From an uncultured virus (IMG/VR IMGVR_UViG_3300001486_000425) (taxonomy: Duplodnaviria; Heunggongvirae; Uroviricota; Caudoviricetes): a DNA stretch of 64,000 nucleotides. Under the pieces are notes generated by a model, which was not told where the DNA came from, made no database searches, and was given only the letters and a program-made list of their open reading frames with translations. Positions 1-13,549 of this stretch are shown here, piece by piece (position 1 is the stretch's first letter; each line of letters opens with the position of its first letter). The position numbers were made by a program, and so were the translations under genes. Where the stretch lies: IMG/VR virus record IMGVR_UViG_3300001486_000425; one strand, given 5' to 3'.

Positions 1-281
1 AATTAGACCATTCAGATACTCAGAAAAACCTCCTTACCAGGAGAAAATGAGACGAGCCGATACAACTTTTAAAATCCCATAGAAAAACTCCCATACTATG
101 AGAATCAGTGATTGACACTATCCGACTTATTATAGGGATAGAAAAACTTCCTAAAAAAGGAAACATTTTGCTGAGTTAAAATATGAAACTCCGGCAAAGA
201 AAAACTTCCATCTATATGGAAACTATCCTCTGAGAATGTCGAAGATAATATCCGACATTGAAAAACCTATATCAAATTGCT
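1..281 (-). CRISPR. Type I-E-like CRISPR array with divergent repeats (5 repeat units, continues off the window edge)
   Basis: Repeats start on + at 22, 81, 140, 198, 259 (period 58-61 nt). On the minus strand four read stem-loop + GTTTTTCT (e.g. GTTTCCATATAGATGGAAGTTTTTCT); the fifth ends GTTTTTCA and overlaps the cas6 stop. Spacers are 31-34 nt. Directly downstream of cas6e. Confidence 0.88.
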
Positions 282-856
282 TTTAAAAGTAATAAACCTA
301 ATCCATAATTCTTAAACCTTCCAACACCATTTTCAATCATTTCTTGCGCTTGTTCAATATTATTAATTTGAATTTTACCTCTAAATGTAGAAGTAGGAAT
401 ATTTTTTACTTTATCTTTGTCAAATATAATATCTGTTTGTCTATATTCTGTACATTCCAATAAATCAATATTATATTTATTGAATTGACGTTGTAACCAT
501 AAATAACGGTCATTAATATCTTTTAAGAAATATCTCTTATCATCATGGGTTTTACATGGGAAGACCTGGAGATCAAATTGATATATTCCTGTATTTGTAA
601 TATCATTTTCAAATTCTTTAACTAATTCAAATCCATATTTTTCAATATTTGTTAAATTAAATTTATCTTTTGATTGAATATACATATAGATTTCATCATT
701 TCTAGAAATAATCTTATAAAGAATTTTACCTTCAGCTCTATGTGTATCTTGTTGTTCAGTTAACCATTTATGAACTGAATTAGAACTATTAATGTCTAAT
801 AGATCTGTGGCAGATAAAATAGATGGTCTAGTCATCTTAAGCACAGTCATGTACAT
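272..856 (-). CDS. cas6e: Cas6e (Cse3) crRNA-processing endoribonuclease
   Basis: C-terminal glycine-rich loop GVGRFKNYGLGLLLL; N-terminal MYMTVLK...VHKWL...YIQS pattern; last gene of the operon. Confidence 0.9.
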   Translation of the reverse strand: MYMTVLKMTRPSILSATDLLDINSSNSVHKWLTEQQDTHRAEGKILYKIISRNDEIYMYIQSKDKFNLTNIEKYGFELVKEFENDITNTGIYQFDLQVFPCKTHDDKRYFLKDINDRYLWLQRQFNKYNIDLLECTEYRQTDIIFDKDKVKNIPTSTFRGKIQINNIEQAQEMIENGVGRFKNYGLGLLLLKAI

Positions 857-1382
857 TCTTAAGTTCCTCCTTCTTAATTAACTTAAATTCTGTTACTATA
901 GGTTTATTAGGTACGCAACTTCTCTTTCCAATAAATAATGAATAAACTGGATTTTGAATTGCATCATATAATTCTTTTAATAGCTCATCAGAACCACCTA
1001 TAAAAATTTCATATTCTGCATCTTGTAAAAATTGAACTTTTTTACATAAAGAACCATCTCTATATTTACCTTCAACAGTTTGAAATGTATTTCGTTTATT
1101 AAATTTATTCATATAATTCTTTTGACTTTTAAGAGGTCTTATTGTTTGAAAATCATTTAAAATAATTGGTTCTTCAATAATAGAATACTTAACGTCAATA
1201 TTATTAAAAAGTTCTTTACTTCTAACATCATTTCTTTCATATCCTAAAGCAGAAGCTAACATACCAACTATAGCTTTTTTTGTTGGATATAATGAAGTAT
1301 TATAAGTTGTTCTTAAAGCAATAGAATCTGAGTCAGAAAAATATTGTAAGACTCCAGATAATGTTAACTTTAAATAATTCAT
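837..1382 (-). CDS. cas5e: Cas5e Cascade subunit (181 aa, no HNH fusion)
   Basis: LKLTLSGVLQYF...PTKKAIVGMLASALGYER and LFIGKRSCVP match Cas5e motifs. Confidence 0.93.
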   Translation of the reverse strand: MNYLKLTLSGVLQYFSDSDSIALRTTYNTSLYPTKKAIVGMLASALGYERNDVRSKELFNNIDVKYSIIEEPIILNDFQTIRPLKSQKNYMNKFNKRNTFQTVEGKYRDGSLCKKVQFLQDAEYEIFIGGSDELLKELYDAIQNPVYSLFIGKRSCVPNKPIVTEFKLIKKEELKNVHDCA

Positions 1383-1394
1383 TTATTATACCTC

Positions 1395-2624
1395 TTAGAT
1401 TAATGCAGAAACTGCCTTCTTTAATACCGTTTCAAGTTCATCAAGACTTGTAATCTGCTTAGCATCCTTAAATAATTTTGCAGCATCCTCAAAATCACTA
1501 CCAAACATTACAAATTGCTGAATCTTACCAGATCTAAATGTCTTATTATTTGCAAACTTACTAAGCTTTTCTACAGCTTGCTCTGAAATTGTTTTTTCAT
1601 TTGTTGCAGTAATTACCTTACTCCAATCAGGTTGTAAGTTAGAACCATCTTCAATAAGTTCAATAAGAATTGCAGTAGGCTCAACACAAGAAGCAGATCT
1701 ATTCTGAGTTGCTTCAGGTACCATTGCAATCATTGATTTAGTAAAATCAATAACAGAATTTACAAGAGTTTCTTTTGTATCTTTATTAGGCGAATATATT
1801 CTAGGATATACAAAAGTATTAAGATTTCTCTCAAATTCCTTAAGGTTAATATTTGCGTAAGAGTACATCAAATTAGAATATAATGAAAGACCTTGGTTAA
1901 TTGTTTCACCATTAGATTTTGCACTTTCTGTATTATTAAAATTATCATACGCACCAAAGAATGGATCTGAAGAATCAGCACCAGATCTACCTACAAATTT
2001 AACTGTAAAGAAGTCAGATTCAGGAAGATATGCATCTACTGAATAAGCTTGGCCCATCTGTAAAGCACCATCAACTGTACCAAGTACACCATCAGTTGCC
2101 ATTGTACCAAACAAAGACTTTGCAACTGAAAGATTTACATCATTAAGAGCAGCAGTCTTAGCAACCTTTTCAATATTTGTTTTATCAAGTTTCTTTACAC
2201 CATTTTCTTTTACAAAGTCAATAAAAGCAGCAATAAGAGCATCAATTTCTGCAGCATTTGTAGTAACTACAACTCGATTGATTTTCTTATCATAACGTCC
2301 CATAATAGTTTCCCATTGATTAGGATCTACACCAATAACTTCCTTAGAACAAATTGCCTTACCAATTGCATCTTTTTCGTCTGCAGTAATAGTCTTATCT
2401 GCAACCTTAACATCAAGACAATCTGAAATAAGCTTTTCAATCTGAGTTGTTCTAATCTCATCACAAGCCATCAATTCTCTAATTGCTCTCTTTTGACACT
2501 GTGATGAAAATCTAACTCTATTTACTCCACCAACTGTAATCTGCTTTGCTTCTCCATCTTCACCTCTATTAAAGGTACCAGGATTATAATGCTTAAGTAA
2601 ATGTACTGCTATAAAATTTCCCAT
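1395..2624 (-). CDS. cas7e: Cas7e (Cse4) Cascade backbone
   Basis: FNRGEDGEAKQITVGGVNRVRFSSQCQKRAIR, SLFGTM, VDGALQMGQAYSV, ESDFFTV. Confidence 0.95.
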   Translation of the reverse strand: MGNFIAVHLLKHYNPGTFNRGEDGEAKQITVGGVNRVRFSSQCQKRAIRELMACDEIRTTQIEKLISDCLDVKVADKTITADEKDAIGKAICSKEVIGVDPNQWETIMGRYDKKINRVVVTTNAAEIDALIAAFIDFVKENGVKKLDKTNIEKVAKTAALNDVNLSVAKSLFGTMATDGVLGTVDGALQMGQAYSVDAYLPESDFFTVKFVGRSGADSSDPFFGAYDNFNNTESAKSNGETINQGLSLYSNLMYSYANINLKEFERNLNTFVYPRIYSPNKDTKETLVNSVIDFTKSMIAMVPEATQNRSASCVEPTAILIELIEDGSNLQPDWSKVITATNEKTISEQAVEKLSKFANNKTFRSGKIQQFVMFGSDFEDAAKLFKDAKQITSLDELETVLKKAVSALI

Positions 2625-2644
2625 AATATTTTAATTTCCTTTCT

Positions 2645-3151
2645 TTACTCCTCAGTTTCAAAATCTGCTCTAGCAATTGCCATTGCCCATTTCATTTTTA
2701 CACTATTATTAGCATTCCAATATTTTAAATCTTTATATAACTTAATATAATCAAATTGTTCAAATGGTTGTAAGCAAGATATTGCTTTTCGTGCTAAAGT
2801 ATAAAATCTTTTTGCAAAATAACCATCATTATCATATCTAAGTTTCAAAAACTTTTCAATTTCTTCAGGTCTATGAACTCTTGCTAATACATCTTCAAAT
2901 CTAACATAAGTTGGTCTTTCTTGCCCAGGTCTAATAGAATTATAACAAAGACCAGCAATTAAAAATTCAATATTTTGATCAATTGGATTTTTATTTTGTG
3001 ATAACTTAGTATATGCAATTAATGCATCCATATCACAAGTTTGTAATGTTTGACCAAATGATCTTTTAATTGGATAATAACTTGATGAATTTGCATAACC
3101 AAGCATATTTGAGAAAAACTTTGTATCAAGATTCTCTGCCATTATTATCAT
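2645..3151 (-). CDS. cas11: Cas11 (Cse2) small subunit; true start probably MAENL at 3142
   Basis: Position between cas8e and cas7e; DYIKLYKDLKYWN...VKMKWA C-terminal pattern. Confidence 0.8.
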   Translation of the reverse strand: MIIMAENLDTKFFSNMLGYANSSSYYPIKRSFGQTLQTCDMDALIAYTKLSQNKNPIDQNIEFLIAGLCYNSIRPGQERPTYVRFEDVLARVHRPEEIEKFLKLRYDNDGYFAKRFYTLARKAISCLQPFEQFDYIKLYKDLKYWNANNSVKMKWAMAIARADFETEE

Positions 3152-4673
3152 TTCCTTCCTTTAATTTATTTAAACTTCCGCAAAATTTTCTATACGCTTC
3201 AGCATATTTAAGTGGATTATTTGTTACTGCTTCTAACTTTTTAACTACTTTCTTTGCATCATCTATAAATAATTTTGTTACTTCATCTATATAACCTTTT
3301 TTATTTATGTTTTCAATAAATGTTGTAAAGAAATAATTCTCAGCATTCTTTGCAAACAATAATTTTATATCTTCAAGACTTGATTTATTTATTCCAGAAT
3401 CATTAAAGATTGCAAATTTAGATTGTATTTTATTAAACATATTTTGGAATTCAACTGCAATTTCATGATTCTTTTCTTTTTGAAGTTTATTAAGAATGCC
3501 TTTCTCTACATTATACTTACCAAAAGATAATACATTAGATTTCATTCCATCATATTGTCTATAATAAATTATTGACTTTACATTATCATTTGCTTGAAAA
3601 TCACTTGAGAATAAATTACATATAAAACCTTCATTATTCTTTTGTGTAATTTCAATACAAAGATTTATAAGTTTTAATGTATTATTCCACTCTTTATAAC
3701 TCCAAGTACCAACTTCTGTTTTCTTATCTATAACATATTTCTTTATTGCCCAAGGATTTGTATATGCATAACTACTACTTATACTATTTCTTGTTTCTGC
3801 ATCAAATATATCATAATTCGTTTTTCCAGCACTAATAGATTTAGCAAGTAAAATATTTTTTACTTCCTTATCATACTGTATATAAATTGGATATGGAAAA
3901 TAAGTACACAGAAGAACATTTTTATAAATGTCACCTGTATCATAATCTAATAATTCATCAAAATTATTAAATTCCCAAATAGGTTTATCATAAATTGTAC
4001 CTTGTTCACTATCTCTTAAAGGTAAGCAATTTGCAATAATAGTTTCTTTAAGATTTTTACCATAATTTAATATAAACAATGTTGCATTTGCACTCATTGC
4101 TTTATATGGATATTGTGCTGCCATTGGAGATGTTCCAAGTGTTCTAAGGTACAACAAAATATATACTAATTCATCTGCTTCAGGCTTAAAATCAACTAAA
4201 TCTGTTTTTGAAGCTGAATTATGTTCAAATATAAGATTATTTCCGCCTGGAGCTAAAAGACTTGATTTTGAAATAAAACTTAAATCTTCTTTACTATCTT
4301 CTTTAATTTCATTCTTTAATCTAATATCTTGTAAAAATGGATATTTGTTGTCAAAAAGATTAAATCTCTTTTCCCATTTATCAAAATAATCATTAATAAC
4401 TTTAAGATCCCAACCTTTTTCAGTTAATTCTTTATTAAAATATTTATCTGCAGCCTTAAACTTATTCTTAGGCTTAAAATATGCAGACAATAAAAGAATA
4501 CAAAGAAACTGAATAACTGGTACATCATATAAACTTACAGTTGTACCATGAAATGTAGGTGTTTCAATATTCTTAATTTTTTCAGCGTCTTGAAATGCCT
4601 GTCTAACAGATATTTGCCTTACTTTTCCAGTATTATATTTAACAAATAACCAATCGTCATTTAATATATTCAT
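3126..4673 (-). CDS. cas8e: Cas8e (Cse1) large subunit
   Basis: MNILNDDWLFVK...ISVRQAF N-terminus; YFDKWEKRFNLFDNKYPFLQ motif. Confidence 0.92.
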   Translation of the reverse strand: MNILNDDWLFVKYNTGKVRQISVRQAFQDAEKIKNIETPTFHGTTVSLYDVPVIQFLCILLLSAYFKPKNKFKAADKYFNKELTEKGWDLKVINDYFDKWEKRFNLFDNKYPFLQDIRLKNEIKEDSKEDLSFISKSSLLAPGGNNLIFEHNSASKTDLVDFKPEADELVYILLYLRTLGTSPMAAQYPYKAMSANATLFILNYGKNLKETIIANCLPLRDSEQGTIYDKPIWEFNNFDELLDYDTGDIYKNVLLCTYFPYPIYIQYDKEVKNILLAKSISAGKTNYDIFDAETRNSISSSYAYTNPWAIKKYVIDKKTEVGTWSYKEWNNTLKLINLCIEITQKNNEGFICNLFSSDFQANDNVKSIIYYRQYDGMKSNVLSFGKYNVEKGILNKLQKEKNHEIAVEFQNMFNKIQSKFAIFNDSGINKSSLEDIKLLFAKNAENYFFTTFIENINKKGYIDEVTKLFIDDAKKVVKKLEAVTNNPLKYAEAYRKFCGSLNKLKEGNDNNGRES

Positions 4674-4701
4674 TAACTAATATTCTTTCCTTTCTTAAAA
4701 T

Positions 4702-4737
4702 AGTATAAATAAATAGGTTTTTATAAAATCCCATGTT
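4702..4737 (-). promoter_or_regulatory. Putative cas operon promoter (CTATTTATT-TATACT, 4716-4702) with a partial protospacer (4734-4721) and AAC PAM (4737-4735)
   Basis: Same motif as other intergenic promoters; 13/14 match to the 5' end of spacer 80-49. Confidence 0.7.
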
Positions 4738-4764
4738 TATAATACTAATAATAAGAAAAAATTT

Positions 4765-5424
4765 TTATTTATTCAAAGCAGGAGCTGAAGAAATTTCATT
4801 TGTATAAGCAGGAACTTTAAGAATTACATTTTTATCACTTATACTAATTGTATAATTCATATCATTTTTTGTAATAACAACATCTCTTTGCTTTTCATCA
4901 GAATCATAAGAGTTTGAAATTACAGAAAATCCAAGCTTCTGATACCTATTAAGCGCAGTTGAGAATAATTCCTTTGCATTACTTTCTTCATCAAATTTAA
5001 TAGATACTGTAGCGGTTGTCTTTGTTGAATAACTCATCTTACTTTCTTCAGAACCTAATGCAATATATACATCAACATATTCAATATACTGCTTACTATC
5101 TTTTATTTCAAATTCCCAATAAAAATCAGTTGTACTAATATCACTTATTTCTTCAGGCTGACAAACAAATCTATTCATATAATCTTGTCTAGACATATCA
5201 TTAGGAAAATATCCAGTCTTCCAAATATTATCAAATACCTGATTTGCAGATAATCCTTCAAGATTGATATATGTAGAATATTTTGTAATAGGTTTTGATG
5301 TTGTAGTTACAATTGCAGAAGTATTATCTGAAGTTACAGTTGTAGACTCATTTGTAGACTGCTTGCAACTTGTTAAAAATAACATAGTACTTGCTAAAAG
5401 TACTGCAATTATCTTATTTTTCAT
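4765..5424 (-). CDS. Putative lipoprotein
   Basis: Basic/hydrophobic signal peptide, lipobox LTSC, Ser/Thr-rich linker. Confidence 0.75.
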   Translation of the reverse strand: MKNKIIAVLLASTMLFLTSCKQSTNESTTVTSDNTSAIVTTTSKPITKYSTYINLEGLSANQVFDNIWKTGYFPNDMSRQDYMNRFVCQPEEISDISTTDFYWEFEIKDSKQYIEYVDVYIALGSEESKMSYSTKTTATVSIKFDEESNAKELFSTALNRYQKLGFSVISNSYDSDEKQRDVVITKNDMNYTISISDKNVILKVPAYTNEISSAPALNK

Positions 5425-6037: not shown

Positions 6038-6532
6038 TTATTCGTCAGTTAAAATATATTTAGTTGCAAATCTTAATAGCATTCGTCTTAATCTTTGTGC
6101 GTCTGTTAGCCACCAACTTTTATAATAATAATTATTATATTTTGCACTTTTTTCACTTGCTAAAATTTGTTTTAATTCATATGAAAAATCAACATTCATT
6201 AAAATTCCTAGCATATCTAAAAATTCTTTTTGTAATTCTGGAATTTTTAATGCTTCTAAAAGTGTAGCATTATATACAGATGTATGTTCTTCTTCATATT
6301 CTTCTCCATAATATTCAAGAAGACCCTTTAACATAATTTCAATACCCATAGCTATTTCAACTAAACCAGTTCTAATATCACTTTGATCTGTTTTCTTATT
6401 ATCAAAAAATCTATCTATAAATATTTCACTTATTTCTAAATGATTTTTTGCTTGTTTAACTGAAGCTCTTCCTTCTTGAATACGTTGTGAATCTGTATAT
6501 CTTGAATAATTTTTAAATCTCCTTGGCCTCAT
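6038..6532 (-). CDS. HEPN-domain protein
   Basis: AKNHLEISE...AMGIEIMLKGLLEYYGEEYEEEHT resembles the HEPN A.EK.LKA.L...G....THDL pattern. Confidence 0.6.
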   Translation of the reverse strand: MRPRRFKNYSRYTDSQRIQEGRASVKQAKNHLEISEIFIDRFFDNKKTDQSDIRTGLVEIAMGIEIMLKGLLEYYGEEYEEEHTSVYNATLLEALKIPELQKEFLDMLGILMNVDFSYELKQILASEKSAKYNNYYYKSWWLTDAQRLRRMLLRFATKYILTDE

Positions 6533-6758
6533 AAATTATATCTCCATTTACATTTAACAATTCCGCATATCGTTCATCTGCAGCCATATAAAGATATACT
6601 GATTTATGATTTGTAATAAGTACATCATATAAATCTATATAAGTTGCCTGATAATGTGTATTAGGCTTTGTAAATACAAGCAATTCTGCTTTACCGTCAA
6701 TTTCACCTATCTTAACAACCTTAGTAATTTCTTTATATTTTTCAAAAATCTTATTCAT
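6513..6758 (-). CDS. Degenerate minimal nucleotidyltransferase (MNT)-like protein
   Basis: KYKEITKVVKIGE and terminal NGDIIYE resemble MNT; GS and DxD motifs absent; overlaps the HEPN gene. Confidence 0.5.
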   Translation of the reverse strand: MNKIFEKYKEITKVVKIGEIDGKAELLVFTKPNTHYQATYIDLYDVLITNHKSVYLYMAADERYAELLNVNGDIIYEAKEI

Positions 6759-12403: not shown

Positions 12404-13549
12404 TTATATTTGCTTTTTTGGATGTATTGTATTCCAGACATATTTAAAGAATATATCTTTATTTAACATAATTTGATCATATACATCAACTTTAATTTCT
12501 TTTGGATCTCTTTTTGATGGTGGCCAATCAGAAATAATTACTTCCCATTCACATTTAGACCAATAATAATACATTAAAGTAGTATTAAATTTTTTACAAA
12601 ATTCATCATAATCTTTAATTTTTTTATCAAGCTTTTTTAGATCTTCCATTACACCATAATGATTAAAAATATTAAATTTTTTAATACTATTACCGTTAAG
12701 ATCTTCACAATATACATACCATTCTAATTTATCAAATTTAGACATATAAATTACCTCCTATTTATTTATAATACATTTTTATTATAATGTAAATAAATAA
12801 AAATTATCAACTGCATTCAATACATCTTTTGGATATTTTATACTATGTATAACTTCATCATAATCATAAGAATTAACTATTATATTAAGTCCATTTTCAT
12901 ATGTTAATAATACATAAGGTCCTTTAAATGTCATAGCAACATTTGGTTTATACATAGTTACTGTATTTGCTATTTTTGGATTTTTGTCTATTAAATCGAA
13001 AAATTGAGAAACAAATTTTATTTCATCATATTTATTAGACATAATAATCTCCTTAAAATTTTATTTTTATTGTTTAATTTCCATACTAACCCTCCATTTA
13101 CATAGAGACTAGTATCTTTATCGGTGTAGACTTGCCTGCGCCTGAATAACCTAAATTTTGTATTTTTTTACGTGCTTTTGAATTTGATCTCTAATAGACG
13201 AATTCTTATAATCGCTACTATTTTGATCATACCAAATGTAATCAAGTATTTTGTTTGAAATGTATAAATTATCATCAATCTTTGTATATACATCTCTTCC
13301 GCCAAAATTTAATATATCTTCGTCAAAACCATCAACTGTTAATAATATTCTTACACCAAAAGCACAAAGAGTATTTGCAAAACAATTATCATCTTTTTCA
13401 TTAAAATAACCTGAATTCGCTACTACCGGAGCAAATTCAGAATTTGATTGATTACTTTGAAGCCAAAATGCATCACCACTAAAAGGTATTACGTCTTTAT
13501 ACTTCATATATTGTTCAATTGTAAGTAATTCAGCTGAAATTATTTGCAT
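12404..13549 (-). other. Hypothetical CDSs 12404-12745 (YYWSKCEWE phage-type motif), 12782-13042, 13151-13549 (DUF6273-like)
   Basis: ORFs with RBS; LLTIEQY...FWLQS...GVR pattern in the last. Confidence 0.7.
13106..13172 (-). pseudogene. Remnant of a P-loop NTPase/kinase N-terminus
   Basis: A frame without a start codon reads RKKIQNLGYSGAGKSTPIKILVSM*. Confidence 0.45.

Follow-up and report, generated by a model that had tools for sequence, protein, structure and literature searches.

Degenerate mini-CRISPRs give rise to CreR RNAs, which repress the cas promoters of type I-B, I-E and V-A systems by partial complementarity (10.1101/2023.03.10.532045). In the Salmonella type I-E case, 15 consecutive nucleotides pair next to an AAG protospacer-adjacent motif (PAM) located about 140 bp upstream of casA, and repression is 8.6-fold (Liu et al., 10.1101/2023.03.10.532045). 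Regulatory mini-arrays of the same class, with mismatches at sixth positions and with stems that vary in sequence and not in structure, have been described by Shmakov et al. (PMC10120712). Phages are known to carry Cracr arrays, whose CRISPR RNA (crRNA)-like products silence the CRISPR-Cas system of the host (10.1101/2024.10.29.618823), and in huge phages, CRISPR-Cas systems that lack Cas1 and have compact arrays are common (Al-Shayeb et al. 2020, PMC7162821). No phage regulating its own Cascade in the CreR manner was found in the literature searched. The locus described here belongs to a giant phage of ruminant guts that carries a CRISPR machine of its own (IMG/VR record IMGVR_UViG_3300001486_000425). 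In the 64,000-nt stretch of its genome that was analyzed (the window), guide S4, the fourth of five guides in an array adjacent to a type I-E cas operon, matches the region upstream of cas8e, the first gene of that operon. It is probable, by analogy with the Salmonella system and from the comparison with a related phage, that S4 is a CreR-type guide autorepressing the Cascade of the phage's own type I-E system. Such a regulation is a known mechanism placed in a new setting, the phage's own system, and in a new architecture, a multi-guide array.

S4 lies on the minus strand at positions 80-49, reads ATGGGATTTTAAAAGTTGTATCGGCTCGTCTC and directly follows an 8-nt handle, GTTTTTCT. Its target site, ATGGGATTTTATAA, is on the same strand at 4734-4721, and the trinucleotide AAC (4737-4735) beside it is a putative PAM on the 5' side of the target in the non-target strand. 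Guide and site agree from position 1 to 11 and again at 13 and 14, with a mismatch at 12; of the 18 bases beyond position 14, two match. Type I-E Cascade flips out position 12, as it does every sixth base, and seed lengths are given below as effective lengths, with every sixth base ignored. The preliminary description of this DNA had reported the match in the cas promoter region, and its coordinates, the mismatch at position 12 and the AAC all proved exact, in the sequence itself and in a scan. The site is found 48-61 nt upstream of the cas8e ATG, inside a 91-bp gap. As with CreR, the complementarity of S4 to its own cas8e upstream region is partial and PAM-proximal. The guide has the sense of the mRNA and can therefore pair only with template-strand DNA, as in Cascade-mediated repression.

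When the five cas-adjacent spacers were scanned against both strands of the 467,383-bp genome, S4 at this site was the single best seed match, with an effective length of 14. With five shuffled spacers, matches of at least 14 averaged 0.63 per genome and occurred in 166 of 400 shuffled sets; a match of this length somewhere in the genome is therefore ordinary. Its placement is unusual. After 20,000 shufflings of 23 guides against the gap and its margins (125 nt, both strands), a seed of 14 appeared in 0.18% of the trials and a seed of 13 in 0.76%. This is the chance calculation that had been called for when the match was first described.

Relatives of the phage were sought through Cas7, which has 63 unnamed relatives (48-98% identity) on contigs of up to 532 kb. 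DNA from six relative loci, all on JGI metagenome contigs, was compared: one of them (L002) is the same phage, and only one (L003) stands at a useful distance, its Cas7 being 85% and its Cas8e 70% identical to those of the window. L003 carries one guide after cas6e and about ten after cas2-3, with hairpins that are all different. The guide at L003:12325 (ATGGGACTTTAAAAAC..., in full ATGGGACTTTAAAAACTTTATCGACTCGTAGC), hereafter x3, is the ortholog of S4 (25/32 identical) and precedes the ortholog of S5 in conserved order, with one extra guide in between. Upstream of cas8e, L003 reads AAT ATGGGACTTTACAG at 4592-4608 (site at L003:4595), and x3 pairs with this site at positions 1-11 and 13. The sole difference within the seed concerns position 7, which is T in both guide and promoter in the window and C in both guide and promoter in L003. 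Covariation of spacer and promoter, which the preliminary description had put forward as a check on its proposal, is thus found between these two phages and is the decisive piece of evidence for autorepression. The x3 pairing is also the best seed match of the 11 parsed guides of L003 against its own 15-kb locus. Neutral divergence between the two phages can be gauged from the six cas genes, where 350 of 576 four-fold degenerate sites (61%) are identical. The 13 nt formed by AA and the 11-mer show a single change, fewer than neutral divergence predicts (binomial P 0.014). Elsewhere the gap aligns poorly between the window and L003, the exceptions being three places: the site, a promoter-like block and the ribosome-binding region. 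Contigs from four ruminant-gut runs (Logan contigs on L003:4400-12800) represent strains 95-99% like L003. The differences listed for them (40, up to position 6718) include only those at 4570 and 4617 in the promoter gap and none at the target (4592-4607), and they provided no usable covariation, ending before the x3 region.

Two promoter candidates lie near the site. A conserved promoter-like block, CTATTTATTTATACTAT (CTATTTATTATTACTAT in L003), is predicted on the minus strand at 4700..4716, with TATACT or TACTAT as the candidate -10 element; the full block occurs once in the genome. With the -10 in this block, the seed would occupy the -35 position in the window; in L003 it would be located about 11 nt farther upstream. 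The original suggestion that the site covers the -35 position therefore fits the window, provided that the predicted block holds the -10, and does not fit both phages, the L003 site being 11 nt further away. The second candidate is a sigma-70-like promoter, TTGAAT-17-TATTAT (4748..4776, minus strand), retrieved by a consensus scan only and without a counterpart in L003; used as promoter, it would set the target directly after the transcription start. An intrinsic terminator found in L003 stops 20 nt short of the site on its upstream side, and the cas promoter would therefore lie between this terminator and cas8e, at or next to the site. The sequence CTATTTATT was considered as a general phage promoter motif and rejected, as it has 14 plus-strand and 11 minus-strand matches, mostly within genes. 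At L009:813-979 (genome ~36.6-36.8 kb, between arrays D and E), the DNA resembles genes for sigma factors of the RpoD/FliA type from phages and bacteria. The phage probably has a sigma factor of its own, and non-standard promoters would be in keeping with this.

The array containing S4 (array F) lies on the minus strand at 1..266 and extends about 40 nt past the window start, where it is followed by cas2-cas3. It consists of five guides (S1-S5) of approximately 32 nt and six degenerate repeats, each repeat with its own hairpin and its handle (GTTTTTCT/A). A short hairpin and the 8-nt handle GTTTTTCT precede each guide, the handle before the first being GTTTTTCA. S4 (F4; 49..80), the candidate autoregulatory crRNA, is preceded by a repeat at 81..109 with the hairpin TCTCAT-AGT-ATGGGA and the handle at 88-81, and is followed by a repeat at 22..48 with the hairpin CTCCT-GGTA-AGGAG and a handle, all on the minus strand. 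A Cas6e-type hairpin and GTTTTTCT are therefore found on both sides of S4, and the array directly follows cas6e, as expected of the encoding of a CreR-type RNA. The 3' arm of the hairpin before S4 (ATGGGA) is identical to the first six bases of S4 itself (TATGGGAGTTTT versus TATGGGATTTT; window positions 81-94 and 70-80, minus strand). This repetition, possibly a small duplication, is not present in L003.

A hairpin of 4-7 bp stands directly before the handle in all 33 repeats examined in this phage and L003. Their stems come in 21 versions and show double changes; 26 of the repeats close with C-G and 7 with T-A, and the fifth pair is A-T in 18, G-C in 5 and T-A in 4. Retention of the hairpin in 33 of 33 repeats with such varied stems indicates that processing is maintained. 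A strict version of the handle motif has 88 plus-strand sites in the genome, and all 14 that are accompanied by such a hairpin sit in arrays. The last and most degenerate repeat of array F overlaps the cas2-cas3 promoter (L002:9658-9686). A sigma-70-like promoter, TTTACA-17-TATAAT (11 of 12 consensus matches), is found before cas2-cas3, its -35 element (TTTACA) being supplied by the repeat; the arrangement before cas2-cas3 in L003 is alike (TTTACT...TATAAT).

The claim that this Cascade autoregulates thus gains support from the joint change of seed and site in L003 and from a design resembling that of Salmonella CreR. As in Salmonella enterica, the RNA is crRNA-like, the repeats are degenerate, pairing is PAM-proximal (15 nt there, 11 + 2 here) and the site, flanked by a PAM (putative here), is upstream of the first Cascade gene. 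The two differ in that the host of the present system is a 467-kb phage and not a bacterium, and in that Cas1 is lacking here. Unlike CreR, S4 is not a stand-alone two-repeat unit; it is the fourth of five guides in the array beside the cas genes, and its L003 counterpart belongs to the group of about ten that follows cas2-3. All repeats are degenerate here, the flanking trinucleotide is AAC or AAT instead of AAG, and the distance between site and start codon is 48-61 nt, as against about 140 bp in Salmonella. The regulatory mini-arrays of Shmakov et al. (PMC10120712) likewise combine a conserved seed, sixth-position mismatches, preserved stem-loops and a cas-promoter target beside a PAM; in the accessible part of that work they belong to bacterial or archaeal loci, or to phages hijacking host Cas proteins, and a phage with its own Cascade is not described there. 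Cracrs (10.1101/2024.10.29.618823) resemble the present arrays in being phage-borne, multi-guide and built on degenerate repeats, and Cracr guides park type I-E Cascade on the casA promoter. Cracrs use host Cas proteins against a host promoter, whereas the predicted target here is the phage's own cas8e promoter. In addition, the handle and hairpin match the repeats found beside homologous phage cas genes (L004, L005 and L006). The present system resembles those of huge phages (PMC7162821) in several ways: Cas1 is lacking, the arrays are compact, the effector is intact, and action against the host or against competing phages is suspected. In the portions of that survey available to us there is no mention of a type I-E Cascade accompanied by fused Cas2-Cas3, of scattered arrays whose repeats have diversified, or of self-regulation.

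Repression by Salmonella CreR occurs without cleavage and in competition with ordinary crRNAs, and the same is proposed here by analogy. Cascade loaded with S4 would recognize AAC or AAT as PAM and open a 14-nt R-loop on the template strand, which would then stall because positions 15-32 do not pair. This partial R-loop would give Cas2-3 no licence to cut, and a footprint of about 32 bp on or next to the promoter would reduce transcription of the Cascade genes. With the array on the same strand after cas6e, S4 probably lowers its own production: co-transcription would make S4 output fall as well, closing a negative feedback loop. For Cascade, S4 would have rivals in the other guides, as CreR has in ordinary crRNAs. 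Cas2-3, having a predicted strong promoter of its own, would for this reason stay outside the loop.

The identity of the PAM was approached through three relatives, L004, L006 and L005 (Cas7 69, 66 and 62% identical, respectively), which possess ordinary, active arrays (22, 15 and 26 parsed spacers) with uniform 29-nt repeats ending in GTTATTC followed by T or C. In these distant relatives, the active arrays thus have repeats that terminate in T or C. In E. coli, the last repeat base derives from the PAM, and by analogy a T or C at this position fits a PAM ending in C or T. Comparison of 74 spacers of L003-L006 with the phage genome and the loci (blastn-short) yielded no accepted protospacer; the best candidate, at 24/32, was rejected on account of a broken seed.

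Several observations weigh against autorepression by S4. The distance from the site to the promoter-like block is 11 nt longer in L003, owing to an insertion. A second S4 seed match, of 13, exists elsewhere in the genome after TGA, a reminder that such matches arise by chance. The covariation amounts to one compensatory event in one pair of lineages and would be met about once in 40 times by chance (estimated from 1/11 for the position, 1/2 for the lineage and ~1/2 for the base); as evidence it is good but not overwhelming. No comparable self-match was seen in L004, L005 or L006, the relatives with active arrays. Nor was any protospacer obtained for two of the 63 spacers of these relatives, both from L005, searched against IMG/VR, or for the whole L005 and L004 arrays searched against INPHARED. 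S4 belongs to a multi-guide array, not to a mini-array of two repeats between cas genes. Finally, its PAM-distal part is 14/17 identical at non-sixth positions between the two phages (P 0.05 versus neutral), which may hint at another, full-length target.

This last point calls for a look at the other guides. At least 10 arrays, each with one to five guides and together with about 23, are distributed over intergenic places of the genome, all on the same (gene) strand, at ~18.3, 20.3, 22.1, 35.9, 37.4, 38.8, 233.0, 245.9-246.2 (cas-adjacent), 249.0 and 433.0 kb. Beyond the cas-adjacent array, at least nine mini-arrays have one to four guides, with an own hairpin for each repeat and the handle GTT[A/T]TTC; those outside the window are at loci L008-L010 and at L002:12440-12510. 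Within the window, the one-guide mini-array J occupies an intergenic gap at 13081..13150 (minus strand; genome ~233.0 kb) and comprises the handle GTTATTCA, a 32-nt guide and a degenerate repeat. Orthologs in L003 exist, besides S4/x3 (25/32), for S5 (x6, 24/32 identical) and E3 (x10, 27/32 identical), and two paralogous pairs, S5/D4 and C1/E1, are found within the phage. Over these five pairs, changes affect 17 of 25 sixth positions and 20 of 135 others (Fisher P 1.6e-7). C1 (L008:3886-3917) and E1 (L009:1544-1575) are each first in their array, are 24/32 identical, start with TTGAC and have no upstream hairpin; a promoter scanner finds -35/-10 pairs running from C1 and E1 into the loop of the next repeat. 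As C1 and E1 may be internal array promoters rather than guides, the statistics were also computed without them (13/20 versus 16/108, P 9e-6); for the orthologs only, the figures are 8/15 and 12/81 (P 0.0024). At 12/81, the non-sixth positions change less than neutral sites (39%; P 1.5e-6). A period of three is also present and qualifies the sixth-position pattern, odd multiples of three being changed in 7 of 25 cases; sixth positions nevertheless exceed these other third-codon positions (17/25 versus 7/25, P 0.005). Read in frame 1, S5 (from window position 21 past the window start), D4 (L009:259-290) and x6 (L003:12454-12485) give EYLNGLIHQV, KYLKGLIQRV and EYLNSLIHQV, with differences that are mostly synonymous, and a fourth variant of the family, EYLNGLIQKV, is found in a contig of run X7. 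These guides seem to track one protein-coding target in several versions. Taken together, all this says that guides are inherited, processed and selected for whole-length pairing in type I-E geometry, and the full-length conservation of those shared with L003 points to full-length targets elsewhere. A short-seed regulatory role of the other spacers, which had also been suggested, finds no support: conservation extends over the whole length except for sixth positions, and self-matches are at chance level. When the phage genome was scanned with 20 guides, two matches reached 14, that of S4 at the promoter and that of B3 within an open reading frame (ORF), with about 2.5 expected from shuffles. 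No targets of the guides were found in searches that included INPHARED, IMG/VR, GTDB genomes, the phage genome and the relative loci.

In light of these data, it seems conceivable, if unlikely, that S4 is mainly an interference guide directed at a full match outside the phage, in a sibling phage or in the host, and that its identity with the home promoter is a by-product and binding there incidental. The target might for instance be the homologous region of a related phage. The distal part of S4 behaves as do the other guides common with L003, which are conserved over their full length except at sixth positions: three of its four distal sixth positions are changed as compared with 3 of 17 others. 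Cas2-3 is intact by Pfam, and spacers of huge phages have been reported against other phages and hosts (PMC7162821). Against this, no full-length match to S4 was found in IMG/VR (0), in one genome for each of 185,579 prokaryote species (GTDB, 0) or in INPHARED, in searches made with exact patterns in collections outside of which most relatives sit, and the promoters of L003, L004, L006 and L007 contain no full S4 match either. An external target does not by itself explain why the seed and the phage's own promoter changed together. The preliminary description held that a perfect 32-nt protospacer elsewhere, along with a promoter match that is not conserved, would speak against regulation; no such protospacer was encountered in these searches and the site is kept in L003.

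Less likely still is that ATGGGAYTTTA is a promoter element or the binding site of a protein factor, that the S4 seed is conserved for separate reasons and that the shared T or C state is due to luck. Chance seeds of 13-14 do occur in an AT-rich genome (0.63 per five spacers, and a 14 for B3 within an ORF), the search that first detected the match was post hoc, and the alternative has a single compensatory change behind it. Such a coincidence would have to combine a place with a probability of about 0.002 and a matched change with one of about 1/40, a low joint probability; in L003 the same pairing comes out independently as the top match, and the 11-mer, with only 4 occurrences in 934,766 positions (the spacer included), is thus not a common promoter element. 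Binding of Cascade-S4 to the site for some other end, such as insulation from upstream read-through, timing in infection or marking of the locus, would agree with the location at the upstream edge of the gap, directly after the terminator in L003, and with the variable spacing to the conserved block, and is nonetheless very improbable, as Cascade bound beside a promoter is expected to repress and no precedent was found in the accessible literature on CreR-type RNAs.

Autorepression through S4 can be set within a broader picture, which is offered tentatively and judged a little short of evenly balanced. A lineage of giant phages of the ruminant gut might have turned a type I-E system into a hard-wired guide set: Cas1 would have been lost, some 23 guides fixed, singly or in short arrays, in at least 10 intergenic places and inherited like genes under Cascade's 5+1 pairing rule, repeat hairpins allowed to drift by compensation, and S4 kept as a brake on Cascade that co-evolves with the promoter. 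Under such a regime, positions 6, 12, 18, 24 and 30 would be free and the rest constrained, and the diversified repeat hairpins would also prevent recombination between copies. Should the role of S4 be as proposed, CreR-type autorepression, known in bacterial and archaeal systems, would extend to viral CRISPR-Cas, and the circuit would have survived the loss of adaptation. Fixed, dispersed guides with substitutions at the flipped-out sixth positions, together with repeats reduced to hairpin and handle, constitute a natural experiment on the in vivo importance of individual crRNA positions. The minimal, non-repetitive repeat variants, apparently accepted by one Cas6e/Cascade, may be practical for stable multiplex arrays.

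In the 467,383-bp virus record, which has direct terminal repeats and is rated complete, the window corresponds to positions 182,179-246,178 read on the reverse strand; GC content is 22-29%. cas8e-cse2-cas7-cas5-cas6 lie on the minus strand of the window and are followed on the same strand by the five-guide array. The upstream neighbor of cas8e is an ORF of 219 amino acids without a name (5424-4765, minus strand), separated by the 91-bp gap from the cas8e start at 4673. The operon consists of cas8e (Cse1; 3126..4673, 515 amino acids; PF09481, E 2.8e-23; under the NCBIfam cut-off), cse2/cas11 (2645..3151, 168 amino acids; PF09485, E 1.3e-4, 22.8 bits, slightly below the 24.6-bit cut-off), cas7e (1395..2624, 409 amino acids; PF09344, E 3.1e-42), cas5e (837..1382, 181 amino acids; PF09704, E 1.2e-20) and cas6e (272..856, 194 amino acids; PF08798, E 2e-18), all on the minus strand. 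The type I-E set Cse1, Cse2, Cas7e, Cas5e and Cas6e is thus present as one operon, with a Pfam match for each protein, that of Cse2 being slightly under the cut-off. Every score against the NCBIfam I-E equivalogs is below cut-off, and the system is therefore a divergent I-E variant. Nor does the system lack cas3: a Cas2-Cas3 fusion of 903 amino acids starts about 50 nt beyond the array, directly outside the window. According to Pfam it is intact, with a Cas2 domain of the I-E kind (PF09707), Cas3 HD, a DEAD helicase and a Cas3 C-terminal domain; fusion of Cas2 to Cas3 is atypical for type I-E. PF01867 (Cas1) had no match in the complete genome, in a search whose control was positive in 7 of 14 reference genomes. 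The combination of a Cas1-Cas2 adaptation module with arrays of identical repeats is accordingly missing: there is no Cas1 and the repeats are all different.

No close relative was found in IMG/VR (Cas7 protein, alignment), GTDB genomes (alignment) or INPHARED (tblastn). Among the loci compared, L005 keeps Cas1; the upstream gene of L006 was considered as Cas1 and ruled out. Two adjacent spacers in the active array of L004 (L004:4620-4745) are variants of each other, 25/32 identical by eye. Targets that have diverged are therefore sampled more than once at one site in this family, and the paralogous guides in the phage of the window may have arisen by such repeated acquisition. L003 has an extra ORF of 87 amino acids between cas8e and cse2 (L003:6213-6476), without a Pfam match, which the window lacks and which a contig of run X20 skips (joint 6191-6494). 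Directly after its array, L003 encodes a SIR2-family protein (L003:12881-13660; Pfam E 1.7e-50), the place of which is taken in the phage of the window by a lipoprotein-like ORF.

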